Shown: positions 15,260 to 51,355 of the stretch, in pieces | Layout of the letters: every line of letters starts with the position of its first letter | Numbering within the stretch: the first letter of the stretch is position 1 | Assembly (NCBI GenBank): GCA_051439505.1 | Contig: JBFRWI010000072.1 | Coordinates: forward strand, 1 to 52,461 | DNA from: Hormoscilla sp. | GTDB lineage: Bacteria; Cyanobacteriota; Cyanobacteriia; Cyanobacteriales; Desertifilaceae | DNA: 52,461 bases | Reading direction: 5' to 3' | Position numbers and translations under genes: made by a program | Notes under the pieces: generated by a model | Database searches by the model: none | The model's input: only the letters and a program-made list of their open reading frames with translations | What the model was told of the DNA's origin: nothing

Positions 15260-15272
15260 ATTTTCCTGTTTT

Positions 15273-15899: not shown

Positions 15900-16008
15900 T
15901 TACATTCCTCCTTGGGTATCTAAGTAATTCCGGAGCTTCGTTGTTATCCCGCTGTAGGTTGGGTTCAGCGGCAGTTTCAAGTCACAGGACTCTTGGGTTT
16001 CGTGAATT

Positions 16009-16045
16009 GACCACTTACAACTGACCACTTACAACTGACTACTTA
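16009..16045. repeat. 14-bp tandem repeat
   Basis: tgaccacttacaac, about 2.6 copies. Confidence 0.6.
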
Positions 16046-17398: not shown

Positions 17399-17410
17399 CT
17401 TTGCACGTCC

Positions 17411-18264: not shown

Positions 18265-18597
18265 AATATTCCTGTTTCGCGGATGCGGTGGGCAAAGTGA
18301 CATTGGTCTAGCTTAATTAAGTCTACCTCTGGAGCCTAGGGCTGTTACTAACAAGCTAATAACAGTAAAAAATTCCTCTGGATATATCTGTTCGACAGCG
18401 ATGTCTACATCGGATGTTTCCGTAAAGCGATCGGGCCTGGTGAGGGAACCAAAGATGTAGGCCCTGCCAATGCCATACTGACTGCCATAGTCATCTAACC
18501 ACTGTTTGACCTGGGCCAGCAATGTTTGCCGTTCCTGTTCTCGTCGATCGCGCTTGGACCGGATAATTTCATCCAGCAGATCGGTGTTAAATGACAT
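18246..18597 (-). pseudogene. MNT nucleotidyltransferase antitoxin, frameshifted
   Basis: IFGS..SDVDIAV motif. The frame stops at 18313, but the expected tail EVDLIKLDQCHFAHRIRETGILWTKMP* continues in another frame to 18246 (span 352 = 3n+1). Confidence 0.8.
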
Positions 18598-18610
18598 TTA
18601 TTATTCTCCA

Positions 18611-21026: not shown

Positions 21027-21212
21027 CCCATTTGAGATTTTATATTTTGTTCAGCCGTTCGTAGACGTAGGGTGGGCACCGCCCACCATTGATCGGTTAA
21101 GCCAACGTTCCGAATGTGTAAATATTTTTGTCCATCTACTTATATTAGACTCGGAACGGGATGTATGTGTACTTTTTGCGGCCATTTCATGTGTCCGTCA
21201 GGGCAGTTGTGG

Positions 21213-21330
21213 GCCATTAGCCATTCTCCATTAGCCATTAGCCATTCTCCATTAGCCATTCTCCATTAGCCATTAGCCATTCTCCATTAGCTATTAGCCA
21301 TTAGCCATTAGCCATTAGCCATTCTCCATT
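21213..21330. repeat. STRR-like heptamer tandem array
   Basis: Mixed CCATTAG/CCATTCT units; shorter tracts near 31160 and 52187. Confidence 0.9.
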
Positions 21331-22643: not shown

Positions 22644-22644
22644 T

Positions 22645-23889: not shown

Positions 23890-24016
23890 CTGCTCATCCT
23901 CCCAAAATGGCCAGATCCACTATCTTCGATCATCTCCGGTGACATCGCCCCTGTACGTCATCAGTATACAGGATCCTGGCGGCGATCGCGATCCGGGTCG
24001 CGGTCGCTGACCAGTC

Positions 24017-24116
24017 ATGTCCCAAACCTCAAGGTCGGGCTTTTTTGGCTGATTCTTCAGGTCCAAAGACCTCAAGGTCGGGCTTTTTTGGCTGACTGTT
24101 CATGTCCAAGACCTCA
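24017..24116. repeat. 42/43-bp imperfect tandem repeat, possible decayed small ORF
   Basis: acctcaaggtcgggcttttttggctga occurs twice; the minus strand reads EVxDxxxQPKKPD repeats across a 1-nt frameshift. Confidence 0.55.
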
Positions 24117-24220
24117 ATCGTGAGCTAATACAGTCCGTCTGCGCCACTGCCGGCGATCGCGCCGATCGGCATCGAAGCGTTGCTCACTCCTGGTCGTGGG
24201 GTGTGGCCCAAAGTCTCCTA

Positions 24221-24275
24221 GCCCGCCGTGGGTTCAAACCCACGGCTAATAGCTTAAGTGGGTTAAAACCCACTG
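24221..24275. repeat. Double-hairpin REP-like repeat
   Basis: gccgtgggttcaaacccacggc-taatagctta-agtgggttaaaacccact. Confidence 0.8.
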
Positions 24276-24345
24276 GAAGCTTGTAGAGAAAGGGTTTAGT
24301 CAACTGCGATCGGGGGTGCTGTCCCACACCGGTAGATATCAATAT

Positions 24346-26850
24346 CTATTCTCCTCCATCTACCCTGTTTAGCAGTTTTTCTCTTACCTCCTCTTTCAAA
24401 ACCTCGTATGTATCTCCATCTAAATCTATTATCCCATCCGCTGCTAGCCCGTTTTGCTGCTGGTAGGAGAATATCCCTTTCACTAATATTTCTATTTGTT
24501 GGGAATCTCCCTTTTGCACAGCCCCGCTATAATTTAGGCTTTCCTGGCTTGACAACGCTACCTTGATTTCCGTGACAATTTCCTTGTACTTATCCTCTTC
24601 GCTTAAATATTTTAATGCTTCCTCTTTTCTTAACTCTTTGACTAGCGTTCCCAGAGCCTTTTTTGTGCTTCTACTGAATTCATTTATCGCGCTTTCTATT
24701 TGTTCTTCGTTCATTTCAGCTAAATCTTGCCCCGCAAACCTGCCCTTGCAAATTTGTGGTCTGTGTTGCAGCTTAAGCTTAATTTCCAGGGAGTCAGCCA
24801 CATCACACTTTAATAAATTATATGTCCTCTTCCCTGGTTCTATGTATCCATCAGCCACAGGCAACTTCTGCTGATTTCGCTGCTGATATGAATGGATAGC
24901 TTCTACCCATTTTCCTTGAGCTGCTGCTATTTCTCCTTGCCAGTCTATTTCCCACCTATTTGCAGAAATTGCTTTTTCATAATTCAGGTCTTTCGCCTGC
25001 ATATCAGTATTCTCGCTCAGAGTTTCCTGAAGTGTTTCGATAATTTTATTACGATCTTGCTCCGGTGTTTTATCTGACAACTGAGTTAACTCTCTTACCA
25101 GGCTTTCAATTGCGTTCTTAGTTATCGTAAAATTCCCGATCGCTTCCCTCTTCCAGGGCGAAACAATTGCTGACATTTGCTTTTGTCCCTGCTTTAAGCC
25201 CACTAAATACGTTGCCACATGGCTGCTTGCTAGCAGACTGACTATAGCAATAATTCGGGCATATTCTTTGACAAATCTCATGCCCTGCTCCGGTAAAGGA
25301 ATCTTTCTTTTAACTTTCAGCCCAAAAATATTCCCTTCATCGGAGCGTTCCCTTGGCAAGGCTCGCTTAAATATCGCTGTCGGCACTGCACCGTCACTCA
25401 CTTGGTAAAAGTATGCCGATAACTCATATGCTGCGGATGGAGCATTTATCGACTTAGAGTTACCTAACCGAGCAAACAACTCTGCCAAAGGTTTATAAAT
25501 GCTAGAGCGATAGGAATTTTGCCAGCACGAGCATAAATTACTCCATAGGTTTTCTCCGCAACTGAAAGCTTGCGGTTCTGGTGCCCTTCTGTTACTACTA
25601 AAGGAAGTGTTAATTGCGATTAAATCTCTCCTGACATCTTCAATCAACTGGAGACGATATGGTGCCCAAAGACTTCCCTGCGCAGTTAACAACCACAGGA
25701 CTGCTGCTACTGATAGCTTTTTGCACAGGAGGCCATTGAGGGCATTTATAATCCCGTATGTAAAATTATCTGGGAGCTGATTCAACTTATTTTTCAGTTG
25801 GGTCTGAAACTCTAGGGATACTTTTTGCTGCGGTTTTTCTTGCTTTTGCTTATCCTCTATCTTTAACCATTCCAGAAACTCTGGCAAAGTCTCTGGTAGT
25901 ATAAATGCTCTCAGAGTTAAAAGTCTTACCATTTGAGGATTGGAATTTCCCTGTCGGAGGGCATTTGTTGCACCCAGTCCATCAAAAACTTCCTGCCATT
26001 GCGTATGTTGATTTTCCCGTAATGCCGCCAATATAGTTTGAATCCATTCTGACTTTATCTGAGAACCACCGCTCAAACCGTTGATTGCTGTTTTGAGCGC
26101 CGCGCGATCGCCTGACGGTACCATCGCCCCTCGATCGCCTGACGGTACCATCGCCCCCGCACTCTCCACTCTCATCTGCCGCCTTTGCGCCAGATTTTGA
26201 TATGATTGTCCGTTAGCTGCTTGAATAATCGTAAACATTTCTGGATGCTCGATCGCCTCTACATTGTACGCCCAGGATACCGGTCCTCCATTGGCTTTTA
26301 CCTCAGCCATGGCGTTAATCGTTTGTAAATTAGGTACTCGCCCTGGTTCAATGACCACAGGTGTCTGATTGTCACTCAGAAAAGTTTGCCACTCCCTTGG
26401 TAATGGTAATTCCGGTTTATAAGCGATCTCGTACAAATGCGGATGTCCTAGCTGTTGGGTAGCAAAGGGATCGAAAACTATCTGCTTCCCTAACTGTTGT
26501 TGGTTATTCATCCAAGCGATAATTTTCCAGAGGCTATCATATCCCTCACACAGGAAGTAACGATAGAAAGAGGTCGATCGCCCATATTCATCTTGTCCCG
26601 TACTCACTGCGGCCACCACTGACCACTCATATTCTACCGTCCTCCCAATAAAGGTTGCCTCTTGACTGTTACGGTCCTGGGAAACCTCGAACCACTTGTT
26701 AGCGATCGCCCGCACCACCGAGTTAGGAATATTCTCCAGGGTTGAGTTCATGTACTCTCCCACCTTGAAGCCACGCGATCGCCATCTCCCGTCTAGTAAC
26801 CTCTCTGGGTTGATGCCCGTGCTAAATTCATGTATTGCCACAGTTACCAT
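24346..26850 (-). CDS. Large GTPase-associated (GAP1-like) bitopic protein with two C-terminal PG-binding-like repeats
   Basis: N-domain GQDEYGRSTSFYRYF; one TM (IIAIVSLLASSHVATYLVGL); AIHSYQQRNQQKLPVADGYI and GIFSYQQQNGLAADGII. The GAP1 label is an inference. Confidence 0.75.
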   Translation of the reverse strand: MVTVAIHEFSTGINPERLLDGRWRSRGFKVGEYMNSTLENIPNSVVRAIANKWFEVSQDRNSQEATFIGRTVEYEWSVVAAVSTGQDEYGRSTSFYRYFLCEGYDSLWKIIAWMNNQQQLGKQIVFDPFATQQLGHPHLYEIAYKPELPLPREWQTFLSDNQTPVVIEPGRVPNLQTINAMAEVKANGGPVSWAYNVEAIEHPEMFTIIQAANGQSYQNLAQRRQMRVESAGAMVPSGDRGAMVPSGDRAALKTAINGLSGGSQIKSEWIQTILAALRENQHTQWQEVFDGLGATNALRQGNSNPQMVRLLTLRAFILPETLPEFLEWLKIEDKQKQEKPQQKVSLEFQTQLKNKLNQLPDNFTYGIINALNGLLCKKLSVAAVLWLLTAQGSLWAPYRLQLIEDVRRDLIAINTSFSSNRRAPEPQAFSCGENLWSNLCSCWQNSYRSSIYKPLAELFARLGNSKSINAPSAAYELSAYFYQVSDGAVPTAIFKRALPRERSDEGNIFGLKVKRKIPLPEQGMRFVKEYARIIAIVSLLASSHVATYLVGLKQGQKQMSAIVSPWKREAIGNFTITKNAIESLVRELTQLSDKTPEQDRNKIIETLQETLSENTDMQAKDLNYEKAISANRWEIDWQGEIAAAQGKWVEAIHSYQQRNQQKLPVADGYIEPGKRTYNLLKCDVADSLEIKLKLQHRPQICKGRFAGQDLAEMNEEQIESAINEFSRSTKKALGTLVKELRKEEALKYLSEEDKYKEIVTEIKVALSSQESLNYSGAVQKGDSQQIEILVKGIFSYQQQNGLAADGIIDLDGDTYEVLKEEVREKLLNRVDGGE
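26105..26157. repeat. 27-bp in-frame tandem duplication anchored on HIP1-like sites
   Basis: cgatcgcctgacggtaccatcgcccc twice (GAMVPSGDR x2). Confidence 0.85.
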
Positions 26851-26854
26851 AGCT

Positions 26855-27742
26855 TTAATCCTTGTCTAATTGAGTATGATGTACTCCCGTACAAAGCCAG
26901 TATATAGGAGATACTAGACCAAAGGGTCGCCATCTTTTCGAGTCTTCCAGTACCGATGCCACCGCCCGGCGATCGCGCGTTATCTGCTTTGAATTCGGTT
27001 TGAGGAACTTATTGCCCAGCACTCCGAATGCCGATACTGTAAAATAGTCTACCTCACAGCTCCCCAATCGCTGCCAAGTCTCCAATTTTTCACAAAGTTT
27101 TTTGAAGCGGGCTGTCGCTAGCCATTTTGGTCTATATCGATTATGCCACAATTCTGTCAGTTCGCACTTAGTCAGCACCAAAGCTATTCTCCGTTTTTGC
27201 TTTTGCTCTCCACCATCACTGGCGCGATCGAGGCCGAGCAGCAGTTTATCTATCCCCTCAGCATACTCCGAGTCTAGCCTATGAGCCGTCCCATCGATCA
27301 GCAACAGCATTCCCGTTGCCAGGGCGCAGTCTTCTATATATTCTTTTAATTGTACCCCTGATTGCTTGAGCAAGTCACTGAAAAACTCTCCCGCATAATC
27401 CTTACAGTTAATATCCAGGTTCATCAATGCTAAGGGGTTATTCCTGGCCGACTGTTTTTTCAGGACTATCCGCAAGCCATAGTTTTTCACCTGCACCACA
27501 TCATCAGCCAGGCGCGTTTGTTCTAATTGCTCTCCTTGTTCTAAGATATTCTGAGCCATTTTAATCAACTCTTCCCCATCGTCGTTCGTAGCGGTCACCG
27601 CTTCCACCGGACTATCGGGGTTCGCCTGGGGCCAGCGGGCCAATGCCGCCAGATAGGTCGTTTTCCCCGATGCCCGATCGCCCACCACCCGCAGTTCCCC
27701 GGATAAGTTTTCCTCCTTGCCCTTAAACAGATCCTTAAACAC
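26855..27742 (-). CDS. TRAFAC-like GTPase 3
   Basis: G1 GDRASGKTT, G3 DYAG, G4 TKCE, G5 SAFG, C-terminal RPFGLVSPIYWL. Confidence 0.88.
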   Translation of the reverse strand: MFKDLFKGKEENLSGELRVVGDRASGKTTYLAALARWPQANPDSPVEAVTATNDDGEELIKMAQNILEQGEQLEQTRLADDVVQVKNYGLRIVLKKQSARNNPLALMNLDINCKDYAGEFFSDLLKQSGVQLKEYIEDCALATGMLLLIDGTAHRLDSEYAEGIDKLLLGLDRASDGGEQKQKRRIALVLTKCELTELWHNRYRPKWLATARFKKLCEKLETWQRLGSCEVDYFTVSAFGVLGNKFLKPNSKQITRDRRAVASVLEDSKRWRPFGLVSPIYWLCTGVHHTQLDKD

Positions 27743-28553
27743 CAGACTGCATCCTCTTGCCCTTACTTAACCAATATAGCGGCGAAATCATCCCGTAGGG
27801 TTGCCACTTGCGATTTCTCAACACCGACTGCTTACTTCCCAGATCGTCTATACGGTTGGGACGCGGATCGTTATGTTCCAGGATCCCAAAAGTAGATATA
27901 GCATAAAATCGCAAATTCTGCCGTTCAATTCTGTTCCGCAGAATACTTGTGGTTCTGGGTAAATGGACGCCGAACATATCCATTTCTGGGTCTAGTCTAC
28001 CAGGCCATAGTTCTCCCCGCTCGCATTTACTCATTGCCACCGCCAGTCGCAAGTCTTGAGTCCGCCCTCCTTCGTTCATTAACTCAATAAATCTGGACAT
28101 CACCTGACTATAGAATAAATCTCCGCCTCTATCCCATCTTTCCAGTAGCAGCAAGCATCCCACCACATCCTTGACGAAGCATTCATCGATAAACTCTTGA
28201 TGGATATTACTATATATCCCCGCTGCTAACTCATCAAATATTTCTCCAGGATAGTCCCTAAATACCAAATCTACTTCATCGTTGCTCGGAGGAAACCTCC
28301 GACTTATTTCTAGCTTAAAAGAGTACAATGGTAAATCAAAAACAGATTTTATTTTAAACCCATCTATCTCCGTCGGGGGCAGAGAGGCCCCCTGTAATAT
28401 AATCCTTTCTGCTTGTTCTTTTAGCCTTTTGGCATCATTAGTGATGCCCGTGATTTGATAATTTTGGTTGCTAGTATCGGACAAATATGCCAAAGCTGCT
28501 AAATAGGTTGTTTTCCCAGCACCCCTTGGTCCCAGCACGCAGATATTGCTCAT
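27735..28553 (-). CDS. TRAFAC-like GTPase 2
   Basis: G1 GPRGAGKTT, G2 PPT, G3 DYPG, G4 SKCE, STFG, QPYGMISPLYWL. Confidence 0.88.
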   Translation of the reverse strand: MSNICVLGPRGAGKTTYLAALAYLSDTSNQNYQITGITNDAKRLKEQAERIILQGASLPPTEIDGFKIKSVFDLPLYSFKLEISRRFPPSNDEVDLVFRDYPGEIFDELAAGIYSNIHQEFIDECFVKDVVGCLLLLERWDRGGDLFYSQVMSRFIELMNEGGRTQDLRLAVAMSKCERGELWPGRLDPEMDMFGVHLPRTTSILRNRIERQNLRFYAISTFGILEHNDPRPNRIDDLGSKQSVLRNRKWQPYGMISPLYWLSKGKRMQSGV

Positions 28554-28567
28554 TTTCCCGAGTTGAG

Positions 28568-29311
28568 TTAGATTGCTAAGTAGCTAGCCAAATATATCCA
28601 GGGTAGTTCCAGTAAAGTCCGGTTATAGATACTGGTGATAAAACAGCGAACTGATAAGCCCGATCGACTGCCATTTATTTCTGCTAGTTGGTCGAGCACT
28701 GGTCGAAAGTAACGGTACATTACATAATTATGGCGACCAAACCAATTCATCTTAGAATCATAAGGGTCGTAAGCTAGCTTGGATGCTTCTCCATCCAGGT
28801 TACAATAAATTAGGTCTGCTTTATTCAAGCAAATCACAATATGGCGTGCCTGGGGACAATCGTTCTGAAAAAATTCTACCCACCGGTCAAACCTATTGCA
28901 CCACTGCTGCTGTGTCATGTGGTTATCCGGGTCCACAGAAGGCTGCAATATTTCCCGATAGGGAGGTACGATCAGGAGAATGCCCTCACTTTTGTGGAGT
29001 AACTGCTTGAAGCTATTCCACTCGTCAGTACGATCTGATTGCCATGACTTGCGGAAGATCTCACCCGGAGTATCTATCCAGTCTAGAGTAATTTGACTTG
29101 TGCCAGTAGGCAAGCGTACTTGCACATCTAGAGGACGAGTATAGGTATCTGCCGTCGGTCTAGCTGTACCATCTTCCAGCAGATTAGCCCTTAAATTATC
29201 GTAACTTTGATTGAGAAGAGAAACGCTGACATATTTGCCAGCCGGTTTGGCCAACTCCACCGCCAGGTGAGTTTTGCCAACATTGCGATCGCCTATATAA
29301 ACCACACCCAC
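28568..29311 (-). CDS. TRAFAC-like GTPase 1
   Basis: G1 GDRNVGKT, G3 DTPG, G4 NKAD; likely GTG start at 29311, 1 nt after the upstream stop. Confidence 0.88.
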   Translation of the reverse strand: MGVVYIGDRNVGKTHLAVELAKPAGKYVSVSLLNQSYDNLRANLLEDGTARPTADTYTRPLDVQVRLPTGTSQITLDWIDTPGEIFRKSWQSDRTDEWNSFKQLLHKSEGILLIVPPYREILQPSVDPDNHMTQQQWCNRFDRWVEFFQNDCPQARHIVICLNKADLIYCNLDGEASKLAYDPYDSKMNWFGRHNYVMYRYFRPVLDQLAEINGSRSGLSVRCFITSIYNRTLLELPWIYLASYLAI

Positions 29312-29312
29312 G

Positions 29313-29751
29313 TCACACCCCCTTGTATCTGGCACCAACCGGACATGAGGGTCTAGGCATCTGGCGGACAGTTGCTAGATAGTATAGCATAGCCAGTGTA
29401 TTTTTCCCAACCCCAGGATATCTACATTTTACATCATCTATTCTATAGCAGCAGATCTTTTTCTGCAATCCACGGGGCCCGACGGGAGTCAACTGCAGTC
29501 GCCTCCCACCCCAAAAACCTCCCTCAACCAACGCCTGGACAGGTTTCGACATTCGCGGCCCCAAGGATCTCCACTCCCCGACTGCCTCGCGCATCGTCAG
29601 GGCACATTCAGATGCACGGGCGCTAGCGCAGCGGCTGCGCAGCAGTTAGCATTCGGAGATAGTATTTGTCGTTTTCTGTCATAGTTTGTCGCTCCGCCCG
29701 CTTCGCCCCTACAGATATATTTGCGCAGCAGCAAGGTAGCACCCTCGCCAT
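29313..29751 (-). pseudogene. Probable disrupted Cys-containing first gene of the GTPase operon
   Basis: MARVLPCCCANISVGAK...QPLR* (TAG at 29623-29625), then frame-shifted AVGEWRSLGP...PSCPVGARYKGV*, whose stop abuts the GTPase 1 start. Confidence 0.55.
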
Positions 29752-40346: not shown

Positions 40347-40420
40347 ATCGTGTTAACAGGGGGTTTCTCATATTTGCAGATCTATCGGGTGTGGTCAAAA
40401 GTAGTTGATAGCGGATTGAC

Positions 40421-40531
40421 TCATACCTTAAACACTGGTGGCGTTGGGTTCGCAGTGGGGTGGATGGGGTTTTGGGTGGGTTGGGTTGGGATTTTTGGCA
40501 TTCCTTGTGTGGAATTTGGCCCGTTGGGCAT
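40421..40531 (-). CDS. Possible 36-aa Pro/Thr/Asn-rich peptide
   Basis: Purine-rich aggaggaaggaaagagg precedes MPNGPNSTQGMPKIPTQPTQNPIHPTANPTPPVFKV*. Confidence 0.3.
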   Translation of the reverse strand: MPNGPNSTQGMPKIPTQPTQNPIHPTANPTPPVFKV

Positions 40532-40641
40532 GGGCCTCTTTCCTTCCTCCTGCTCCTTGGGACTGTTAGACGTCTCTTTGACCCCTACTCATTGCGATCC
40601 CATTCGTTCCCTGTAGCAGCACCTCCTCCCTCCGATCCCAT

Positions 40642-40857
40642 CTAGCGCGGGCAGACGCGATGCAATGCAAAATACCCATGATACTTCCCGGAGCACTCCA
40701 ACTCGCACTTTTCAATTGTTTCGCATCGAATATCATGTAATTGCTGAAAATTGTCGCAGCATCCCCATTCATCCGACGCAAATGCTTGTGCTGTACATGT
40801 TGCGCTCATGATTACGAAGGCCATTGCCAGGACTATGGCTTTGCAGATATTATTCAT
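40642..40857 (-). CDS. Small secreted cysteine-rich peptide
   Basis: Sec signal ending in A-x-A (AQA/AFA); mature part has 6 Cys (CC-x10-C-x5-C-x3-C-x13-C). Confidence 0.65.
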   Translation of the reverse strand: MNNICKAIVLAMAFVIMSATCTAQAFASDEWGCCDNFQQLHDIRCETIEKCELECSGKYHGYFALHRVCPR

Positions 40858-41472
40858 TGTTTTCTCTCTCTAAACCCAAGGTATTACAAAGCATTCATCT
40901 TTCGTTTTCAGCCAGAACCATATGTTTGGGGCCGTGGTTTTTCTAATTGACTCAAGGTCTAGTGTTCCCATCCTTCGGGTTCCCTTGATCATCCGCTGAC
41001 TTGAACGGACGATCCCCATAATTTCCGGTTGAGACTTTAGGATATGTGACCAGATAAAATATAACTGATGATTTCGCCAGAGTACATTGGTATTAATACC
41101 AGTTTAGCCGATGAGGCATGATGGGTTTGTTGTTTCCTAGGGTTGTAGTGTCGCACTTATGACCACCTCTGCTACCGGGTGCCAGTGTAGGACATGCTAT
41201 TATGTGCTGATGATGCTGATGATCTGCTCCTGTGTCCCATGCGCAACGCTGGTCCTTTTCGGCTTCGGTGGTGTAAGGATTTGGGGTGGATCGCCTCCCA
41301 AATCACTCCCACACCCACCACTTCGCGGAATTCAAAATTCAGAATTCAGAATTCAAAATTCGTGGGGAGCAAGGTTTTGATCCCTGAAGGGGTTACATGA
41401 GCACTCAAACGCTTACTATGTTTCGGTCGTGGCAATTTAAATGCGCGACAGCTTAATGGGGGTTTTGAGAAC

Positions 41473-41640
41473 AACAACGGCTAATGAGCAACAAACCGTT
41501 GTTCTTCGGTAATTGTTGCACCGAAGCGTTCATTTTGAGGCTCGGTAGCAGAACCCGAGGCCCTGTAGGAGTTTCAGCAGTTATTATCGAACTGAACCAG
41601 TGCCCGAAAGTGTAATCATCTATATGTTATCCGTAATCAC
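41473..41640 (-). other. Densely structured non-coding segment, possible mobile-element RNA remnant
   Basis: Four consecutive hairpins, at about 41473-41503, 41504-41526, 41541-41559 and 41573-41596. Strand assignment is tentative. Confidence 0.4.
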
Positions 41641-41796
41641 CGGTAAAATCAGAGAATGTGCAACGCAGAATTGCTTATGACCAGTATTACGCCTGCTCTT
41701 CCCCCTGGGTAAGGCTTGGATCCCATGCTCCAAACCTGGTTACAGGAGGATATTGGTCGGACCGATCGCACGACGTCGGCCCTCCTAGGAACGGAT

Positions 41797-42193
41797 GTTG
41801 AGCTTGCCATAACGGGGCCTCCACCCGCAGCACCGGTTCATGAGGAAAGACCGCCGTTCCTTCTGGCACTGCCCAGACATCCCCGCTGAACTGGCCATCT
41901 GCCAGCATCGACCAGAAGCTTGCTGGGGCCCCCTCAAAAATACCAGTCGATCGCAAAGCATCCAGTTGGGTGGAACTAAACTGCCATTTCTCTAGGTAGT
42001 CTACAGCTTGAGCCAAACCCATTGCGATCAAATAGCCAAACCCAGCTGGCAGACGGCGGGCGAACAGCTCAAAGCTTGCCGGTGCTGTTTCCAGACCTTC
42101 ACCGGCATAACAGGCTCCCATTGTCAGTTGATAAAGGTCTGTTAACAGGCTATAATCCGAGGGGGCGATCGTCAGTTGGAGATCTTCCCTCAC
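41797..42193 (-). pseudogene. pncB: Duplicated 5' third of pncB
   Basis: Near-identical to pncB up to LWQAQ, then unrelated sequence to a stop at 41687. Confidence 0.93.
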
Positions 42194-42217
42194 TCTCTGC
42201 CTGCGCGTTTCCTTTGA

Positions 42218-42238
42218 TTATAGTAATTTTCACCAAAA
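42218..42238. promoter_or_regulatory. NrtR box 2
   Basis: TTATAGT-AATTTTC-ACCAAAA. Confidence 0.78.
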
Positions 42239-42440
42239 GTCGTGTTAACATAATTTAACGTCCCGTGAATTCGGTAAACCGGTAGAGTGCCGATCGCGCG
42301 CCAATCTGTTAAAATTCACTCAGCTCAGCTAAGTATATATATGTATTACATAGTCAGTATAAGTAATACAAAAAACACAGCAAAAGTGAAATTCGCATAC
42401 TGGCATCATTTTTTTCAATGAGCAATCTATAGCAAGTAAT

Positions 42441-43760
42441 ATGGTCCTCCCCAGAAAATACACCCTGAGATGTAGAAAGTGTGGAGCAGAGTATGAACCG
42501 AGCCCGGGACGTTTGGTTTGCGATCGCGATCACGCCCCCGCATTACTCTTTGCGTCCTACACCCAGAAACACCTTGAAGTCAAAAATAATCTACCGGGGC
42601 TATTCCGCTTCATCGATTGGCTTCCTGTAGAGAATACTCTGGATGTGGAAGGCAAACCGATAACTTACGAAAGCAAGAAACTGGCCCATCATCTGGGATT
42701 AAAGAATCTTTTTATCAGTTTTAACGGCTATTGGCCGGAGCGCAATGCCCGCCTACTTACCTGCTCCTTTAAGGAATTGGAAGCTCCCGTCGTCCTGGCC
42801 AGAAGAGATGGCGTCCCCGGTCGAATTGTCGTTGCCTCAGCAGGCAATACAGGACGCGCCTTTTGTTACATCTGCTCCCGGACCCAATTTCCCCTCTGCC
42901 TCGTCCTACCCGAACAAAACCTCTCTGCCCTGTGGTTACCCACAACCGGAGACACCAATAGCATTTGCCTGGTCGCTGCCAGTGGCAGTTGTGATTACTA
43001 CGACGCCATTCATCTTGCCAAACACATCGGTGATTTACCAGGGTGCTTCCCCGAAGGAGGAGCCAGCAACGTTGCCCGCCGCGATGGCATGGGCGTGACC
43101 GTGCTGGATGCTGCTGTGGAGCTTGGCCGTATCCCCGATCACTACTTCCAAGCCGTTGGCTCCGGTACCGGTGGCATCGCCGCCTGGGAAGCCAATCTGC
43201 GCCTCCTAGAGGACGGTCGGTTTGGCGGACGGCGCATGCAGCTTCACCTCGCTCAAAACCAGCCTTTTACACCCATGACAGATGCCTGGAAGGCCCGCAG
43301 CCCGTCCATCAGCCCCCTGTCAGAGACAGATGCCAAAACTTCTATCAGTCAAGTCTCGGCCAAAGTCCTCTCGAACCGACAACCAGCCTACGCTCTCTCT
43401 GGGGGATTGTATGACGCACTGATTGATTCCAATGGTGAAATGTACGCTGTATCCAATCAAGAATCAGACCAGGCCAGGGCCCTCTTCCAAACATTAGAAG
43501 GCATTGATATTAGTCCAGCGGCGGGGGTCGCAACGGCTAGTTTATTACAGGCCGTGGACGGAGGATTAGTTGGGCCGCAAGATTACATTTTGCTCAATAT
43601 CACCAGTGGCGGGTACCAGCGCCTGCAGCAGGATTTTCAGCTCCAATCTCTAAAACCTGATATCGCTTTTGCTAACGAGGATATACTGCCCGATCGGGTT
43701 GCTACAGGTATGAAGATTCTCTTGCAATCTACCCATAGCTCTGTCGCCAAAAAACCTTGA
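42441..43760 (+). CDS. Cysteate synthase (PLP enzyme, threonine-synthase-like)
   Basis: N-terminal CxxC; FNGYWPERNA..TCSFKELEA, ASAGNTGRAF, NVARRDGMG, YFQAVGSGTGGIAAWEA, LNITSGG. Confidence 0.85.
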   Translation: MVLPRKYTLRCRKCGAEYEPSPGRLVCDRDHAPALLFASYTQKHLEVKNNLPGLFRFIDWLPVENTLDVEGKPITYESKKLAHHLGLKNLFISFNGYWPERNARLLTCSFKELEAPVVLARRDGVPGRIVVASAGNTGRAFCYICSRTQFPLCLVLPEQNLSALWLPTTGDTNSICLVAASGSCDYYDAIHLAKHIGDLPGCFPEGGASNVARRDGMGVTVLDAAVELGRIPDHYFQAVGSGTGGIAAWEANLRLLEDGRFGGRRMQLHLAQNQPFTPMTDAWKARSPSISPLSETDAKTSISQVSAKVLSNRQPAYALSGGLYDALIDSNGEMYAVSNQESDQARALFQTLEGIDISPAAGVATASLLQAVDGGLVGPQDYILLNITSGGYQRLQQDFQLQSLKPDIAFANEDILPDRVATGMKILLQSTHSSVAKKP

Positions 43761-43968: not shown

Positions 43969-45642
43969 TCAAAAGTGCAGTGTACCCATTTTGGCGGACT
44001 TATGCCAACAATCTCCCTGAATCAGGGTATGGACTTGCCAATCAGTAGAGGTTTGAGGATAATCGTTGCGGTAATGTCCGCCTCGGCTTTCTGTGCGCCA
44101 TACAGCACTTTTCAAGATTAAATAAGCAACATCAGCCAAATTGAGGGTTTCTGCAGCTAGCCTCAGGTGCTGTTCGGCCCGATCGGAGCTTAATTCTACT
44201 GTTTGGTTGGGGGATCCCTTGAGTAAGTATTGCATCACATCCAAATCCGTGAGTTGAGAACGCCAAATACTCAGTTGTGAGATTGCTTCTTCAAGCATGG
44301 CTTGAGAGCGACAAATTCCAGCCGTTTCCCACATGAGTTTAGGTAAATTTTGTCTAATGGCGCGAACCTCATCCATCTCATTGTTCCAGTCCAGTGGTTG
44401 TCTCTTCACCGGCAGTTCCCGATCTCCAAGAGCATCATCAACAGTATCTTTAGCGTGAACAGTCAGATGGGAGAAGTTGGCTGCAAAAACAATGCATTCT
44501 AGTAGAGAATTACTTGCCAAACGATTCGCACCATGTACCCCAGTACTTGCAGTTTCGCCCACAGCATAGAGTCCCCCGATCGAGGTACAATTTTCCAAAT
44601 TTGTCGCAACTCCCCCCATCCAGTAATGAGCCGCAGGAGCGACAGGAATCGGTTCTGTAAACAAATCAAAGCCCCACTGTTGACAAGCTTGCACAATGCT
44701 GGGAAAACGATCGCGCATCCTCTGGGCCTTTATGGGTCGCAAATCCAAGTAAACACAATAGGGATCGGGGTTGGTTTTCTGCAAGTGAGAGAAAATTGCC
44801 CGACTCACCACATCCCTAGGTGCCAACTCTCCATCCCGATGATAGTCAAAAGCAAAACGCTGTCCTTTGGCATTGACTAAATGTGCCCCTTCCCCCCGTA
44901 CAACCTCAGTAATCAAGAAACGGGGGATTCCGTTGACTGTTATGGCCGTCGGATGAAATTGGAAAAACTCCGGATCTCGGATTAAGGCCCCTGCACGCCA
45001 AGCTAGAGCAACGCCATCCCCAGTTATGACCGTAGGATTTGTAGTGTGGGAAAAAACTTGACCGCTACCGCCACTCGCTAACACCACAGCACCAGCTCTC
45101 ACCCAACGAATATATCCGCGATCGAGGAGACTCACCCCCTGACAGTTCCCTGTGGCTTCATTAAGCCACAAACTCAAGGCAAACGCCTGGGAAAACACCT
45201 GAATGTTTTTACGTGCCAAAACTTGAGCCGCGAGCACATCAATCAGCGCTTTTCCAGTCGTTTCACCATAATGGAGGACACGGGGGCGAGAGTGTGCTGC
45301 TTCTAGCGCCAAGGCGAGTTTCTGACCGTGGCTGTCAAAGGGAACTCCCATCTCTAGAAGAGACTCGATCGCACTAGGAGCATTAGAGGCTAAAAATTTG
45401 ACCGCTTCTGGCTCGCAAAGACCTGCACCAGCCTTGAGGGTATCTTCCCAATGGGATAAGGGAGTATCGTCGGGATCGATCGCCGCAGCAATACCTCGTG
45501 CCCATCTGCTCGCTCCCGTTTTCAGGGTCTCTTTAGTAATCAACCCCACTTGCAGGTGGCTAGGCAAGCACAAAGCGGTATAGAGCCCTGCTGCACCAGA
45601 GCCAATGATGAGGATATCTAACTGGGAGGGAATATTTGGCAT
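43969..45642 (-). CDS. nadB: L-aspartate oxidase, divergent second copy
   Basis: GSGAAG, QFHPT, LAPRDVV, AAHYWMGG, HGANRLASNSL; WAQGG motif shortened to WARG. Confidence 0.93.
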   Translation of the reverse strand: MPNIPSQLDILIIGSGAAGLYTALCLPSHLQVGLITKETLKTGASRWARGIAAAIDPDDTPLSHWEDTLKAGAGLCEPEAVKFLASNAPSAIESLLEMGVPFDSHGQKLALALEAAHSRPRVLHYGETTGKALIDVLAAQVLARKNIQVFSQAFALSLWLNEATGNCQGVSLLDRGYIRWVRAGAVVLASGGSGQVFSHTTNPTVITGDGVALAWRAGALIRDPEFFQFHPTAITVNGIPRFLITEVVRGEGAHLVNAKGQRFAFDYHRDGELAPRDVVSRAIFSHLQKTNPDPYCVYLDLRPIKAQRMRDRFPSIVQACQQWGFDLFTEPIPVAPAAHYWMGGVATNLENCTSIGGLYAVGETASTGVHGANRLASNSLLECIVFAANFSHLTVHAKDTVDDALGDRELPVKRQPLDWNNEMDEVRAIRQNLPKLMWETAGICRSQAMLEEAISQLSIWRSQLTDLDVMQYLLKGSPNQTVELSSDRAEQHLRLAAETLNLADVAYLILKSAVWRTESRGGHYRNDYPQTSTDWQVHTLIQGDCWHKSAKMGTLHF

Positions 45643-45775
45643 TTTCAGGGATTACATAGATAAATTTTATGGTCTTGCATCATCTTGCCCATCATCCTTT
45701 GGGCAGTGGGGGTGCATCTCACTCCCTTGCTCCGCCAGGGAACGAGGATAAAACACTTTTTATACAAGGCTGGAG

Positions 45776-45829
45776 AGTGGGTTTTAACCCACTTTAGCTA
45801 TTAGCCCGGGGTTTGAACCCCGGGCGGGC
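45776..45829. repeat. Double-hairpin REP-like repeat
   Basis: agtgggttttaacccact-ttagctatta-gcccggggtttgaaccccgggc. Confidence 0.8.
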
Positions 45830-45862
45830 CATGAGGCTAATTGAGAATGCAGAAAAAGCAAT

Positions 45863-47563
45863 TTATGCAATTGTACCAAAACAAGATTCTTTTAAACAAA
45901 CTCCTTTGCTAACTTCTTTGTCATCTATTACTAAAATCGCCTCCCTATATTCCAAGATCAGGTTACTTTCCATCCTTGATGTTTGATTTCGCAGAATGCT
46001 TGACCAAGTGGCAAAGCAATTATCTAATTTCAGGTGATACATCTTGTTTTCAATGCATGCACGAACACTTGTTTGGCGATGATAAGAATTTTTCGTGCGC
46101 AACGATATTTCCTTTGCCCTTGGGGAATTATTGAGTTTGGAAGTATAGAGGAGATTGAAATGATTGTTATCTTCTCGGCCAAATGTGGCATCAGCACTCC
46201 AAATAATTCCGTAATCAGGTAAAAGTGCATAAACAAAATGGTAGCCCCAAAACCTGGGATAATTTCCCTCATAAATTTTGCAATACCCTTCCCCTTTTTG
46301 AGTGCCCTTATCTGTATGGACTGTACATCGAAGTTGTGGCTGATGGATAACATCCCGTTGATTTTCCTCACCCGGAACACCCCAAGTGAATTGGCTCGTC
46401 ACTTCAAATTGCAGTTCTAGATTTGCTTCGGGCAAGCAAATCTTTCCAGCTTGATTGTTTTTTTCGATAGAGATATGGTTAGCTGAGCTTCTTTGTTCGC
46501 AGGTATTAATCAGTTCTCGGGAATTGCCATGACGGTCACTCCACCAAGCAGAGTAATGCTCGATCGTTTTGGTTTTAAAATGTCTGAGAGCAATGAGAGA
46601 GCCGTCTTCGAGAAAGAAATGGTATTGCTCATTGTAAACAGAAGTCAAAGGGGAGAAATAGATTTCAGGTACTTGATGAATCTGTGGAGCATAAGGTTTC
46701 TTCGCAGCGATCAATGCTCCACCAATGTTACCACTTTGAAACATATCCCGACCGATTCTGTACAATCGACTGCGGCGTTCGTAAACCTCTTCACCGAATA
46801 TTTTGATTGATTCTTCTTTGGACTCGATGAATTTCTGATAGCGTTCTACTTTACAACCTTGCCATCCTGTTGTTAAATCTATGAAACAAATGTCAGTAAA
46901 GCCCGCACGCTCTAAGTGATATCGGTAGGCTTCACGGCTCGGCACGTAAGGGGATTTAAATACTTCTTTGAGAGTTGTTTTTATTTCTGATGTCAGGGGG
47001 CAATTGGCAACGTAATCCTCAATGTAGATGCGGCCATTCTCTTTCAAAGATTGAAAACAAATTTCCAGCACTTGGTCCCGTTCTTCAATGTGTAGCAGGG
47101 AGAGAAAAGAAATGATGTTGTCAAATGAACTGGGTAACAGGGCATCTCTGATTTGGGAACTGAGAACATTGCCAGTCAGGTATTGGATGCGCCGATCTAA
47201 TCCCATCCGTTGGGTGAGTTCTTGGGCAATCTCACTAAAGTCCTTTCTTAATTCCACACATTGGAAGTGACATCCCGTTTTATAGCTAATATATCGTGCC
47301 GGTCCACCCACACCGCTTCCTATATCCAAAACGCGAGAGTTGGGATTAAGTGACAAATAATTGATGGCCCGATCGCAAGCTTGGCTACCAAAGTAATGAT
47401 ATTGATCCAGATGACCCAATGAGAGCAAATCTTGAATATCTAAATTCCCGATCGCTTTTCCTTTTTCTTTAAGTGCTTGACGAATACTATCAACGCGCCA
47501 GTCGTAAAGTAAAGCCGTCTCTTGTGACAGAGAAGATTGATTTTCCGATGATGGTAATGTCAT
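45863..47563 (-). CDS. SAM-dependent methyltransferase (sarcosine/dimethylglycine N-methyltransferase-like) fused to an unknown beta-rich C-terminal domain
   Basis: LDQYHYFG, motif I VLDIGSGVGGPARY, FDNIIS..LLHI, LKENGRIYIED; residues about 300-566 not recognised. Confidence 0.85.
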   Translation of the reverse strand: MTLPSSENQSSLSQETALLYDWRVDSIRQALKEKGKAIGNLDIQDLLSLGHLDQYHYFGSQACDRAINYLSLNPNSRVLDIGSGVGGPARYISYKTGCHFQCVELRKDFSEIAQELTQRMGLDRRIQYLTGNVLSSQIRDALLPSSFDNIISFLSLLHIEERDQVLEICFQSLKENGRIYIEDYVANCPLTSEIKTTLKEVFKSPYVPSREAYRYHLERAGFTDICFIDLTTGWQGCKVERYQKFIESKEESIKIFGEEVYERRSRLYRIGRDMFQSGNIGGALIAAKKPYAPQIHQVPEIYFSPLTSVYNEQYHFFLEDGSLIALRHFKTKTIEHYSAWWSDRHGNSRELINTCEQRSSANHISIEKNNQAGKICLPEANLELQFEVTSQFTWGVPGEENQRDVIHQPQLRCTVHTDKGTQKGEGYCKIYEGNYPRFWGYHFVYALLPDYGIIWSADATFGREDNNHFNLLYTSKLNNSPRAKEISLRTKNSYHRQTSVRACIENKMYHLKLDNCFATWSSILRNQTSRMESNLILEYREAILVIDDKEVSKGVCLKESCFGTIA

Positions 47564-47682
47564 AATTATTTTCAGGTAAGAGCATCTCTAAACTCCATCC
47601 GGCTTGAGTAGCGGAGTTTTGACTGCGGCCAAACTCCACTACTGGACTACTCACCCCGGACAATATATCCCGCAACTTGATA

Positions 47683-48654
47683 TTAAGCTGACATTTCCAA
47701 CATTCGTTGCATTGGCTTGAGGGCAGCAACCCGAATATCCTCTGGCAACGTAATTTCCGGTGTCCGATTCTTCATCGCCAAATAAAGTTTCTCCAAAGTA
47801 TTCAGCCGCATGTGAGGGCATTCATTACAGGCACAGTTCCCCGTTGCTGGTGCGGGAATAAACTGCTTTTGTGGCATGTGCTTTTCCATTTGATGAAGAA
47901 TTCCGGGTTCAGTCCCGACGATAAATGCCTCGCTCTGACTTTGCTGGCTATACTCAAACAAAGCTTTCGTTGAACCAATGTAATCTGCATGGCGCAAAAC
48001 TGGCTCTTCACATTCCGGATGAGCAATAAATTCTGCTTGAGGATGTTCAATTTTGAGTTGTACGATCTTTTTTTCCGAAAATATTTCATGAACCATACAA
48101 CTCCCGTTCCAAAGGACTAAATCTCGTCCTGTTTGCTCGCTAACATAGCGACCGAGGTTTTTATCAGGAGCGAAAATAATTGGTTGTTCTTTGGGGATTT
48201 GATTAACAATTTTCACTGCATTAGAGCTGGTGCAAATAATATCACTCATTGCTTTAACCGCAGCCGAGCAATTAACGTAACACACAACTAAATGATCGGG
48301 ATGGGCAGCTTTGAAAGCCGCAAATTCTTCCGCAGGACAGCCATCAGCCATAGAGCAACCCGCATCTAAATCAGGTAATAATACCAATTTATCCGGATTA
48401 AGGATTTTGGCTGTTTCTGCCATAAAATGAACTCCAGCAAACACAATCACATCAGCATCTGTAGTAGCTGCTTGCCGAGATAAGCTTAAAGAGTCCCCGA
48501 GATAATCAGCAATGTCTTGAATATCTGGCTCTTGATAATAGTGAACTAAAATAACTGCATTTAGCTCCTTCTTTAGATCTTCAATTGCCCCGAACAGATC
48601 GTCGGGAAAATCGCTCAGGTTATTGTTTGCTTTTTTTGATTCAGTGATAAACAT
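47683..48654 (-). CDS. nadA: Quinolinate synthase
   Basis: LVHYYQ, GDSL, GVHFMAE; three Fe-S Cys (GCSMA, CMVHE, CPHM). Confidence 0.97.
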
Positions 48655-48753
48655 TGTTATGGATATTGAATGGGTTTGGGCAAGTTAAAATGAGAAAGTC
48701 TCAAAAGAATCTGTAATACACGCTCACCGGTTCTCCTCGCCTTTAGGCACCGG

Positions 48754-48777
48754 AGCAGTTTGATTAATCAAACTGCT
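48754..48777. promoter_or_regulatory. Perfect 24-bp palindrome 100 bp upstream of nadA
   Basis: AGCAGTTTGATTAATCAAACTGCT. Confidence 0.45.
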
Positions 48778-49063
48778 GCAAACCCTTACAGGGCCGGTAT
48801 TTCTGCCATTGCGTCGAGGTGCTATCTCCCTTATTGAGTGTTTCAGGCTATCCTTTTAATTATACGCTTGATGGGTGCCAAATCTTATGACCGCACGCAA
48901 TAAACTATTTTAGCCTTTTTTATAGCCCTCAATTGTATAGTACAATACTTTTTTCCCGATAAACCGAGGACAGCTAACTAAATCTGCCTTTGGGCGTATC
49001 CTCTTGTGGGGAGAGAAGCTTCGCTCCTGGCGAGTTCCCCATAAATCCCCCTTTTTAAGCTAT

Positions 49064-49228
49064 GCCATAATGGGGCCTCTACCCGTAGCAGCGGGCGAAT
49101 AGCTCAAAGCTAGCCAGTGCTGTGTCCAGACCAACACCGGCATAACAGGCTCCCAGTGTCAGCTGGTAAAGGTCTGTTAACAGGCTGTAATCCGATGGGG
49201 AGATGGTCAGTTGGAGATCTTCCACCAA
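49064..49228 (-). pseudogene. pncB: Third pncB 5' remnant with internal deletion
   Basis: VEDLQLTISPSDYSLLTDLYQLTLGACYAG..SFELFAR is joined through a ccgc microhomology to DNA matching the PLLRVEAPLW segment. Confidence 0.88.
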
Positions 49229-49258
49229 TATCTGCTCCTGAAGGCACTTATCCTTGAA

Positions 49259-49279
49259 TTATAGTATAAGTTACCAAAA
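49259..49279. promoter_or_regulatory. NrtR box 3, between the pncB remnant and nadB
   Basis: TTATAGT-ATAAGTT-ACCAAAA. Confidence 0.78.
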
Positions 49280-49347
49280 GCATGTTAAAGTAGTGTAAAT
49301 TTGAGAAATTAGAGTTCTGAAAAATATTCTCAAATCGGGAGAAAAAA

Positions 49348-50994
49348 TTGCACAAAAAGACATTTGATATTATCGTCGTCGGCTCGGGAGCAGCCGGACT
49401 GTATGCTAGCCTGTGCCTACCAGAATGCTATCGCGTGGCGCTAGTAACTAAAGACAAACTCAGAACCGGTTCGAGTAAATGGGCCCAAGGAGGAATAGCG
49501 GCAGCAATAGCGGACGACGACTCCCCCCAACTGCATCTGGAAGATACATTGAAAGCAGGGGTAGGTTTGTGCGATCGGGCGGCGGTAGAATTTCTGGTAG
49601 AACATGCCCCAGAAGCGATCGCATCCTTGCTAGAACTAGGGGTAGCATTCGATCGCAAAAAGAATAAACTAGCAACAACCCTGGAAGCTGCCCATTCTCG
49701 GTCCCGAGTATTGCATTCTCAAGATACCACCGGACGGGCGATCGTCGATATCCTCACAGCTAGAGTATCGGAACGGCCCAACATAGAGGTATTATCTCAA
49801 GCATTTGCCCTCAGCTTGTGGCAAAACCCCCAAACCCATCATTGTCAAGGTATTAGTCTCCTGTACCAAAATCAAATCCGGTGGCTGAGGGCAAATGCGG
49901 TAATTTTAGCCACCGGTGGGGGCGGTCAAATATTCGCCAAAACCACCAACCCCTCAGTCAGTACCGGGGATGGAGTCGCCCTCGCTTGGCGGGCGGGGGC
50001 AGCAGTGCGGGATTTAGAATTCGTGCAATTTCATCCTACCGCCCTCAGTCAACCGGGTGTACCTCACTTTCTGATTAGCGAAGCGGTTCGAGGGGAGGGG
50101 GCCCATTTGGTAGATGAGTCGGGCAGGCGTTTTGCCTTTGACTACCATCCCCAAGGAGAGTTAGCGCCGCGAGATGTGGTCAGTCGAGCAATTTTCAATC
50201 ATTTAGAAAAAACCGCCTCAGATCCGGCAACGGCTAATGTATATTTAGACTTACGAGCGATCGCCCCCGATCGGGTTCGCTATCGTTTCCCGAATATCAT
50301 CGAAAAATGTCAGCAGTGGGGGATTGATGTTTTCTCCCAACCGATACCAGTAGCGCCTGCCGCTCATTATTGGATGGGAGGAGTAGTAGTAGATTTGATG
50401 AATGCTACTTCTATACCGGGGTTATATGCTATTGGGGAGACTGCCAGTACGGGGGTGCATGGGGCAAATCGTTTGGCGAGCAATTCTTTATTAGAATGTA
50501 TCGTGTTTGCGGCCCAACTGCACGACTTGGAAGTAGAACCAGTTAGCAGCAGCAGCGACGGCGAGTCTTTGACAGTGGAGACTGGAGACTGGAGTGGGGA
50601 AATAGAACTCCTAGAGTTAGTCAGGGAAAAATTGCCAGGGTTAATGTGGCATAGTGCGGGTATTTGTCGAACCCAGGAACTTTTAGAAGAGGCGATCGCT
50701 CATGTTAGTTCCTGGCGTTCTCAGTTGGCTGATTTAGAGATTTGTAAATATATTTTTAATTTATCTGCCACCAACAATATCCAATTTGAGTCCGACATTG
50801 CCTCCCAGCAATTAAAAATTGCTGCAGAAACGATGAATTTGTTAGATATCGGCTATTTAATGCTCAAAAGTGCAGCATTTCGGACAGAAAGTCGGGGGGG
50901 ACATTATCGCAAAGATTATCCTGAAACTGCCGCCAGTTGGGAAGTGCATACTGTAGTAGAGGGCGATCGGATAGAAACTGTACCTGGTTTGTAG
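49348..50994 (+). CDS. nadB: L-aspartate oxidase, canonical copy
   Basis: WAQGGIAA, HSQDTTG, LISEAVRGEG, HGANRLASNSL; TTG start. Confidence 0.96.
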   Translation: MHKKTFDIIVVGSGAAGLYASLCLPECYRVALVTKDKLRTGSSKWAQGGIAAAIADDDSPQLHLEDTLKAGVGLCDRAAVEFLVEHAPEAIASLLELGVAFDRKKNKLATTLEAAHSRSRVLHSQDTTGRAIVDILTARVSERPNIEVLSQAFALSLWQNPQTHHCQGISLLYQNQIRWLRANAVILATGGGGQIFAKTTNPSVSTGDGVALAWRAGAAVRDLEFVQFHPTALSQPGVPHFLISEAVRGEGAHLVDESGRRFAFDYHPQGELAPRDVVSRAIFNHLEKTASDPATANVYLDLRAIAPDRVRYRFPNIIEKCQQWGIDVFSQPIPVAPAAHYWMGGVVVDLMNATSIPGLYAIGETASTGVHGANRLASNSLLECIVFAAQLHDLEVEPVSSSSDGESLTVETGDWSGEIELLELVREKLPGLMWHSAGICRTQELLEEAIAHVSSWRSQLADLEICKYIFNLSATNNIQFESDIASQQLKIAAETMNLLDIGYLMLKSAAFRTESRGGHYRKDYPETAASWEVHTVVEGDRIETVPGL

Positions 50995-51076
50995 TAAACG
51001 CGCTTCGCGTTTGCCGGTTGGTAGTAAACGCGCTTCGCGTTTGCCGGTTGGTAGTAAACGCTTTAGCGTTTGCCGG
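50991..51076. repeat. 30-bp tandem hairpin repeat
   Basis: gtagtaaacgcgcttcgcgtttgccggttg, about 2.8 copies. Confidence 0.85.
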
Positions 51077-51145
51077 CGCTAGCACAGACTAACACCGCCA
51101 TAACAGCCATTATCAGTCTGACTGCCCGCCCGACAGTAACCACCG

Positions 51146-51355
51146 GTGTACGGCAGTACAGACATTTTTCGTCTCCACCGGTCATTTGTGGATGCCGTAC
51201 ACCTACATTAACGATCGCATGGATCCGCCAACGGACGACCACACCCCATTTAGACGTCTATGAGGCCAGTGTACGGCAGTATAGACATTTTTCATCTCCA
51301 CCGGTCATTTGTGGATGCCGTACACCTACATTAACGATCGCATGGATCCGCCAAC
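51146..51355. repeat. Two 87-bp direct repeats (period 123 bp), each folding as a three-way junction
   Basis: Copies at 51146-51232 and 51269-51355; outer stem gtgtacggca/tgccgtacac. Confidence 0.85.

Follow-up and report, generated by a model that had tools for sequence, protein, structure and literature searches.

Can a cyanobacterium divert quinolinate, the ring precursor of NAD, to a methylated pyridine betaine such as homarine or trigonelline? A direct test is offered by a three-gene cassette of Hormoscilla sp., found on contig JBFRWI010000072.1 of assembly GCA_051439505.1 (positions 1 to 52,461; this whole stretch of 52,461 nucleotides is called the window). The cassette holds nadA, a gene for a methyltransferase (MT) fused to a C-terminal barrel domain (the fusion), and a second nadB (nadB1). 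NadB and NadA make quinolinate, and NadC alkylates its N1 and drops the C2 carboxyl. The best overall explanation, which we consider only just probable, is that the fusion N-methylates quinolinate and then decarboxylates it, most likely to trigonelline.

If this is true, the fusion would be a marker gene for producers among benthic filamentous cyanobacteria and dinoflagellates, and the barrel family, which has no Pfam model, would receive its first function. A trigonelline outcome would mean a route from de novo quinolinate, not from nicotinate salvage. In samples from the North Pacific, homarine reached 3% of the particulate carbon, and the enzyme of its biosynthesis has yet to be characterised (PMC8269262); its catabolic operon was described only recently (PMC13236597). 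A literature search that left subscription journals mostly outside found no published description of the cassette or the enzyme, and no paper on N-methylquinolinate, on its enzyme or under homarine biosynthesis. A homarine-related route that does not start from quinolinate was reportedly proposed in shrimp by Netherton and Gurin in 1982.

Integrity of the cassette

As the initial annotation had claimed, nadA, the two-domain MT and the extra nadB are adjacent and co-oriented. They form three intact open reading frames (ORFs) on the minus strand (Table 1), with intergenic gaps of 119 and 220 nt; the fusion ORF (45863-47563) encodes 566 residues. NadA and NadB1 both scored above their equivalog cut-offs (TIGR00550, 406.7 versus 262.9 bits; TIGR00551, 594.5 versus 452.75 bits). 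In the alignment NadA kept all of what we take to be its functional elements, namely three Fe-S cysteines and the HYYQ, GDS, HPEC and GST motifs. NadB1 retained the FQFHPT, APRD, AHYW and ANRL motifs, including the catalytic His/Arg/Glu motifs. Purifying selection was evident on all three genes, the ratio of nonsynonymous to synonymous substitution (dN/dS) being 0.06-0.29. A one-residue deletion in NadB1 (WARG for WAQGG) is common to six other cassette copies; because of this recurrence and a dN/dS of 0.17-0.22, it was ruled out that nadB1 is a pseudogene or an assembly artefact. The gene is 61% identical to nadB2, which lies outside the cassette, and is inverted relative to it.

When read runs were checked, contigs of X1, which may be the source sample, covered 30 of 30 bins of the stretch at similar depth outside repeats. 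Those of X5, from another study, covered 29 of 30, and one 708-nt piece bridges nadA and the MT; no X1 or X5 piece spans the whole stretch. A scan for promoters and terminators was uninformative (16 promoter-like sites versus 9.5 expected, and 4 terminator-like sites versus 5.4).

Linkage of the fusion to nadA and nadB

The linkage set comprised 18 full-length fusion copies from 14 genomes, the closely related ones among them not being independent; a 1.9-kb contig (L015) was dropped and repeated contigs were counted once. Both nadA and nadB were linked to 17 of the 18 copies. This recurrence exceeds chance, and it is the outcome of a check named beforehand in the initial annotation, namely whether MT homologs are linked to nadA/nadB. 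The order nadA-MT-nadB was found in 11 cases (G000, which is the window genome, G401-G404, G407 with an inserted insertion sequence, G544, G568, G588, G638 and G172) and nadA-nadB-...-MT in five copies (G405, G544, G568, G588, G686), and G406 has MT-nadB, its nadA lying 13 kb further upstream in the same orientation. The copy in G401 is bordered by EamA exporters, and a ProX betaine-binding gene is inserted in the cassette remnant of G172.

None of the 11 strict cassettes contained nadC. In the congener G412 the order is pncB, NrtR-like box, nadA-nadC-nadB, so the fusion occupies the operon slot of nadC. The N1 alkylation and C2 decarboxylation performed by NadC also parallel the chemistry proposed here. 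On the other hand, NadC and the fusion have no relation in sequence or fold, the group transferred is phosphoribosyl in one and would be methyl in the other, and the product of the fusion would be a dead-end betaine.

Full-length homologs occur at 57-84% identity in marine cyanobacteria, among them Moorena, Okeania, Symploca, Dapis and Calothrix, and others in dinoflagellates and Perkinsus (29-33%). The barrel is rare, with 10 carriers among 401 genomes at order level and 2 of 401 in a sample of the phylum. The fusion was found in none of four congeners, none of 13 family members and none of 29 and 27 genomes of family f25, a family of small genomes. Dinoflagellate-type fusions (P0022-P0034) have basic N-terminal extensions that by eye resemble mitochondrial targeting sequences. 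In P0040, P0044, P0092, P0048 and P0101 the MT carries an NMT1/THI5-like (Ca3427) binding domain and the barrel may be present or missing, an architecture that hints at a small heteroaromatic ligand.

A more independent line of linkage evidence came from barrel-less relatives of the MT (36-39% identity), which reached nadA or nadB in three separate ways. The immediate neighbour is nadA in G908 and G848; in G871 and G942, which represent one event, it is nadB. These four belong to a set of 18 barrel-less cyanobacterial loci, one of which is cut by a contig end. At L016:7036-8804, L018:1913-5407 and L088 (Coleofasciculus, G172) a barrel-less MT lies beside MmgE/PrpD, another MT and a cysteine dioxygenase-like gene.

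Methyltransferase domain

Pfam MT matches were obtained at residues 57-280 of the fusion, and the C-terminal half had no match. The structure model of the whole protein (predicted local distance difference test, pLDDT, 83.5) has two domains. With its Rossmann-type fold, GxGxG motif I and acidic residue after strand 2, the first is a class I S-adenosylmethionine (SAM)-dependent MT. Phosphoethanolamine N-methyltransferase (PMT; 5wp5, 4iv0, 3uj6) and sarcosine/dimethylglycine N-methyltransferase (SDMT; 2o57) share this fold (Z 27.8-28.7, root mean square deviation (rmsd) 2.1-2.8, 240-264 residues aligned) at 18-25% identity. The fusion differs from both by its fused barrel, its nad linkage and its own invariant LGHLDQYHY stretch and arginines. 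The family-specific invariant residues are W22, R23, this stretch, H51, Q54, H56, H158, R241, R264 and Y268, and the three arginines would suit an anionic substrate. His158 aligns with the catalytic His of PMT, presumably part of a dyad. PMT is the best profile and fold match, yet the KQRKY stretch of PfPMT, whose residues we take to bind phosphate, is not kept.

The fusion does not belong to the SDMT group (NF041675, 52-54 bits versus a curated cut-off of 550). Nor is it an ortholog of the Tery_2447 type, as it shows 29% identity over 195 residues to the Trichodesmium erythraeum protein ABG51659.1 and forms a separate branch. The T. erythraeum enzyme is likewise betaine-type, from marine filamentous cyanobacteria and found in nad loci, but it is single-domain and lacks W22, R23, R241 and R264. 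Among 10 Pfam matches at E 0.01 there was no nicotinate or nicotinamide N-methyltransferase family (PF00891, NNMT). The plant nicotinate and animal nicotinamide enzymes also N-methylate a pyridine ring, but belong to other MT families; trigonelline is the product in plants, and both kinds of enzyme use salvage intermediates and not de novo quinolinate. By these comparisons the fusion is an undescribed two-domain enzyme of the betaine-forming MT kind, outside every characterised subfamily tested.

No Tery_2447-type MT was found in the window genome save for relatives of 37-38% identity on contig C208. There, tandem near-duplicate SDMT-like genes (L224:8502-10474) score 177-191 bits, below the SDMT cut-off, and by eye follow aminotransferase-like and decarboxylase-like ORFs.

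Barrel domain

Folded alone, residues 299-566 gave a pLDDT of 89 and an AttH/CrtC-like double barrel (against 2ich, Z 22.6, rmsd 3.4, 247 residues aligned). The fold search returned six strong matches with Z 16.7-22.6 and the next only at 6.7. The common fold is that of AttH (2ich), kievitone hydratase (7a0q), the Diels-Alderases Fsa2, CghA and Phm7 and 25-phosphosteroid lyase, at 7-11% identity. To our knowledge, none of these relatives is a decarboxylase or is fused to an MT. The modelled likeness of fold indicates no function. Folds of the acetoacetate-decarboxylase kind reached only Z 5-7. Language-model features linked the barrel to CrtC and tocopherol cyclase, in clusters where 18% of members carry PF14249 and 68% carry PF27123; a profile comparison of the barrel with a tocopherol cyclase sequence gave no match. 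Conserved residues are Q313, H315, R327, H407, K429, W439, Y441 and E559.

Stand-alone barrels were also found, in clusters of catabolic genes. A Pfam search of 22 of them gave no match, and a search for them in plasmids returned none. In 21 metagenome loci they never occurred with an MT; their neighbours encode transporters as well as oxygenases of the Rieske, luciferase-like, PhyH and TauD types. One of the 21 (L125) lies behind a cluster of hydrolase, reductase, LLM monooxygenase, aldehyde dehydrogenase and succinate-semialdehyde dehydrogenase genes, arranged as in a cluster on a plasmid of Rhizobium leguminosarum (54-77% identity). This cluster probably corresponds to the trigonelline tgn type.

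Regulation and quinolinate supply

The initial annotation had placed a canonical NrtR-boxed nadB just outside the cassette and had seen no box before its nadA, and both observations stood. The near-palindrome before nadB2 (Table 1) reads TTATAGT-N7-ACCAAAA; we take it to be an NrtR box from its presumed consensus and its location before NAD genes. It recurs in front of pncB (40326), of the pncB 5' duplicate (42218) and of a nadA remnant on contig C49. The 450 nt that precede the cassette nadA contained no such box. With at most one mismatch within 450 nt, a box preceded 7 of 7 non-cassette nadA genes and 0 of 9 tested copies from MT clusters, by a pattern partly tuned on the window and congener sites; three of the nine gave matches with two mismatches, and eight further loci lay outside the test.

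No second intact nadA was found in a whole-genome search of the 93%-complete assembly. At C49:14106-14433 the host nadA is cut down to its box and last 92 codons, whereas congeners G409-G411 are intact at that site; in G412 the gene at the equivalent site is frameshifted and replaced by a copy at the pncB locus. The cassette nadA is thus likely the only de novo source of quinolinate in the window genome, and it likely feeds NAD synthesis as well, through the intact nadC on contig C68. Since it is the sole intact nadA of the assembly, the 'dedicated' quinolinate supply of the initial annotation was not supported in that wording, the supply being not purely dedicated. A separate additional nadA is retained in G403, G404, G407 and G172.

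Substrate and product

In the proposed pathway, the unboxed cassette NadB and NadA would raise quinolinate flux outside NrtR control, the MT domain would N-methylate quinolinate, and the barrel would remove one carboxyl as CO2, most likely that at C2, to give trigonelline, which may serve as a compatible solute or signal. Quinolinate is, with modest confidence, the methyl acceptor. That the barrel is a tailoring or decarboxylating domain is tentative and falls somewhat short of probable. Trigonelline as the end product is a possibility to which we give less credence still, and N-methylquinolinate or another betaine is improbable. Loss of the C2 carboxyl is chemically favoured beside the cationic nitrogen, whereas loss at C3 is harder and would need more catalysis.

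The evidence leans weakly to trigonelline over homarine. The distribution tilts this way because dinoflagellates carry the fusion, Prorocentrum minimum contains trigonelline, dinoflagellates were not seen making homarine and the gene was not found in family f25. Trigonelline in P. minimum amounts to 0.65-1.6 mM (PMC3721227); the link to the fusion is at the level of dinoflagellates, not of this species. The tgn-like cluster in front of one stand-alone barrel (L125) also speaks for trigonelline.

Several results weigh against the quinolinate pathway, besides the non-independence of related genomes and the tuning of the box pattern. For one fusion copy (L012), which stands at the head of a flavocytochrome-MetH-nonribosomal peptide synthetase/polyketide synthase (NRPS/PKS) cluster, the nearest 8 kb contained no nad gene, and the G172 cassette copy is broken. 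In G000, G401, G402, G405 and G406 no intact nadA besides that of the cassette was found. For the barrel-less relatives, nadA/nadB were absent from the flanks covered for 13 of the 18 cyanobacterial loci (five had 1.5 kb per side) and for all 43 non-cyanobacterial ones. No decarboxylase is among the six strong fold matches of the barrel, whose fold relatives comprise hydratases, cyclases and a lyase, and the 21 stand-alone loci included no nad genes, a tgn-like cluster being lacking in 20. Finally, a different, single-domain SDMT-like MT occupies nad loci of G402, G404, G405, G406, G409, G411 and others; nad linkage therefore does not fix the substrate, since this betaine MT probably acts on a non-pyridine compound.

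This second MT lends weight to the foremost alternative, in which the substrate of the fusion is an amine or amino acid of the aliphatic kind and osmolyte genes tend to gather at the nad locus, where nad genes act as recombination arms or keep the unit under selection. We regard it as possible but unlikely. Tery_2447 is reportedly a homoserine methyltransferase, its biochemistry having been worked out by Pade in 2016. The second MT is 84.5% identical to ABG51659.1 of T. erythraeum IMS101, which is likely Tery_2447; both carry the label 'Methyltransferase type 11' (PMC5864184). At L138:9484-18431, L139, L134 and L189, nadC/nadA and this homoserine-betaine-type MT are clustered with NADAR, Zn alcohol dehydrogenase, MurL-like, GBBH-like, isochorismatase and short-chain dehydrogenase/reductase genes, and in the congeners G409 and G411 such a cluster lies inside the housekeeping pncB-nadB interval. 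It also fits that phosphoethanolamine and sarcosine are the substrates of the nearest solved structures, that the window locus is strewn with pncB and nadC debris and that the host nadA has here given way to that of the cassette. However, nadA and nadB, not nadC, are kept at dN/dS well below 1 in genomes with a boxed nadA of their own, the cassettes lie at different chromosomal sites, and nadB1 is both inverted and divergent from nadB2. The three encounters of barrel-less relatives with nadA or nadB and the substrate-side residues unlike those of the T. erythraeum enzyme likewise count against this alternative.

Alternatively, quinolinate is methylated as proposed, and it is the carboxyl at C3 that the barrel takes off, perhaps once the pyridinium ring has been covalently hydrated, to yield homarine. 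The fusion would then be the missing homarine synthase and its barrel a new family of cofactor-free decarboxylases that strip an unactivated C3 carboxyl, with stand-alone members letting marine heterotrophs process pyridinium dicarboxylates. This outcome, nested in the same core, is doubtful. C3 loss would require an enzyme, a hydratase and a lyase are among the fold relatives, and a hydratase-like barrel might provide the added catalysis. Homarine is said to be formed from quinolinate, an uncharacterised enzyme carrying out the decarboxylation (PMC8269262), enzymatic conversion of 6-hydroxyquinolinate to 6-hydroxypicolinate by a UbiD-like enzyme is on record (PMC6644310), and Amphidinium carterae was reported to contain homarine (cited in PMC3721227). 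Nevertheless, the fusion was not found in f25, judged from genome size to be probably the picocyanobacteria, although Synechococcus makes up to 400 mM homarine, no diatom or haptophyte is among the named matches, and dinoflagellates, which carry the fusion, were not seen making homarine (PMC13236597).

Less likely again is a pyridine substrate without a betaine solute, partly overlapping with the proposed core, in which the fusion acts as an overflow or detoxification valve for quinolinate or nicotinate, forms an O-methyl ester or supplies an NRPS/PKS starter. Five fusion copies head a flavocytochrome c-MetH fragment-NRPS/PKS cluster, the O-methyltransferases RebM, TleD and AtmM are in the fold group, and the barrel-less gene of G908 precedes a boxed housekeeping nadA. 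Yet NRPS/PKS genes adjoin none of the 11 strict cassettes, the unboxed extra nadA/nadB argue for raised flux and not disposal, and ProX within one cassette points to a betaine. The second fusion lineage (L012:8001-17684, L013, L217, L218, L220) heads flavocytochrome c, a stand-alone B12-binding/reactivation half of MetH and NRPS/PKS. A link to the neighbouring cysteate synthase, with methylation of taurine or cysteate, was rejected, as no fusion locus examined contained that gene.

Mobility and the rearranged nad locus

In unrooted trees the window groups with G402, G404 and G407 (support 100/99 for NadA, 100/100 for NadB1, 99/98 for the fusion), the next neighbour being the Calothrix copy, and nadB2 of the window is placed apart. 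GC content at third codon positions (GC3) is 0.36-0.38 for nadA and the MT versus 0.45-0.55 for the neighbours. Each of the four congeners carries one nadB and none the fusion. This shared tree pattern, the fusion-free congeners and the low GC3 suggest that the cassette is a conserved unit that likely moved horizontally; no donor is claimed.

The nad locus of the window is rearranged (40358-42306 and 49091-49288): the 5' end of pncB is duplicated twice, together with its box, and a nadC 5' scrap is present; the duplicate and the scrap at 41690..42250 are debris of an older nad locus. The statement in the initial annotation that the window has no nadC is correct for an intact copy, but not for this scrap. 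The locus looks like an insertion hot spot, because congeners show it in three other states: bare, with nadA-nadC inserted, or with a betaine-type cluster inserted. A single-copy cysteate synthase gene (42441-43760, plus strand; TIGR03844, 524 bits versus a cut-off of 325) occurs neither at the corresponding nad locus in three congeners nor in the other fusion loci, and is a separate insert.

Table 1. Positions of the cassette genes and adjacent elements in the window
Feature	Position	Strand	Remark
nadA, quinolinate synthase, 323 aa	47683..48654	-	cassette lineage; sole intact nadA of assembly
Fusion residues 1-290, class I SAM-dependent MT, PMT/SDMT fold	46694..47563	-	motif VLDIGSGVGG
Fusion residues ~299-566, double beta-barrel, AttH/kievitone hydratase/Fsa2-CghA fold	45863..46669	-	no Pfam family
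nadB1, L-aspartate oxidase, 557 aa	43969..45642	-	cassette copy
Upstream region of cassette nadA	48655..49090	-	without NrtR-like box
Dispersed genomic repeat between MT and nadB1	45723..45848	none	
NrtR-like palindrome between pncB 5' fragment and nadB2	49259..49279		outside cassette; presumed consensus
nadB2, host's own nadB	49348..50994	+	outside cassette; 88-93% to congeners
pncB 5' fragment	49091..49288	-	right border of rearranged segment
pncB 5' duplicate	41797-42250	-	own box at 42218; region 41690..42250
nadC 5' scrap	41713-41790	+	abuts pncB 5' duplicate

Other features of the window

Downstream of nadB2, two 90-nt direct repeats of 97% identity (51143-51355) are preceded by short tandem repeats at about 50986-51076. 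On the minus strand, 40642-40854 may encode a small secreted peptide of about 70 residues with a signal-like start and six cysteines; it had no Pfam match. The minus strand at 13526-29338 carries a run of genes that looks like a GAP1-type or other conflict system: three of double-GTPase-like type, two for VWA proteins, then FHA, PP2C and a HepT-like toxin pair.

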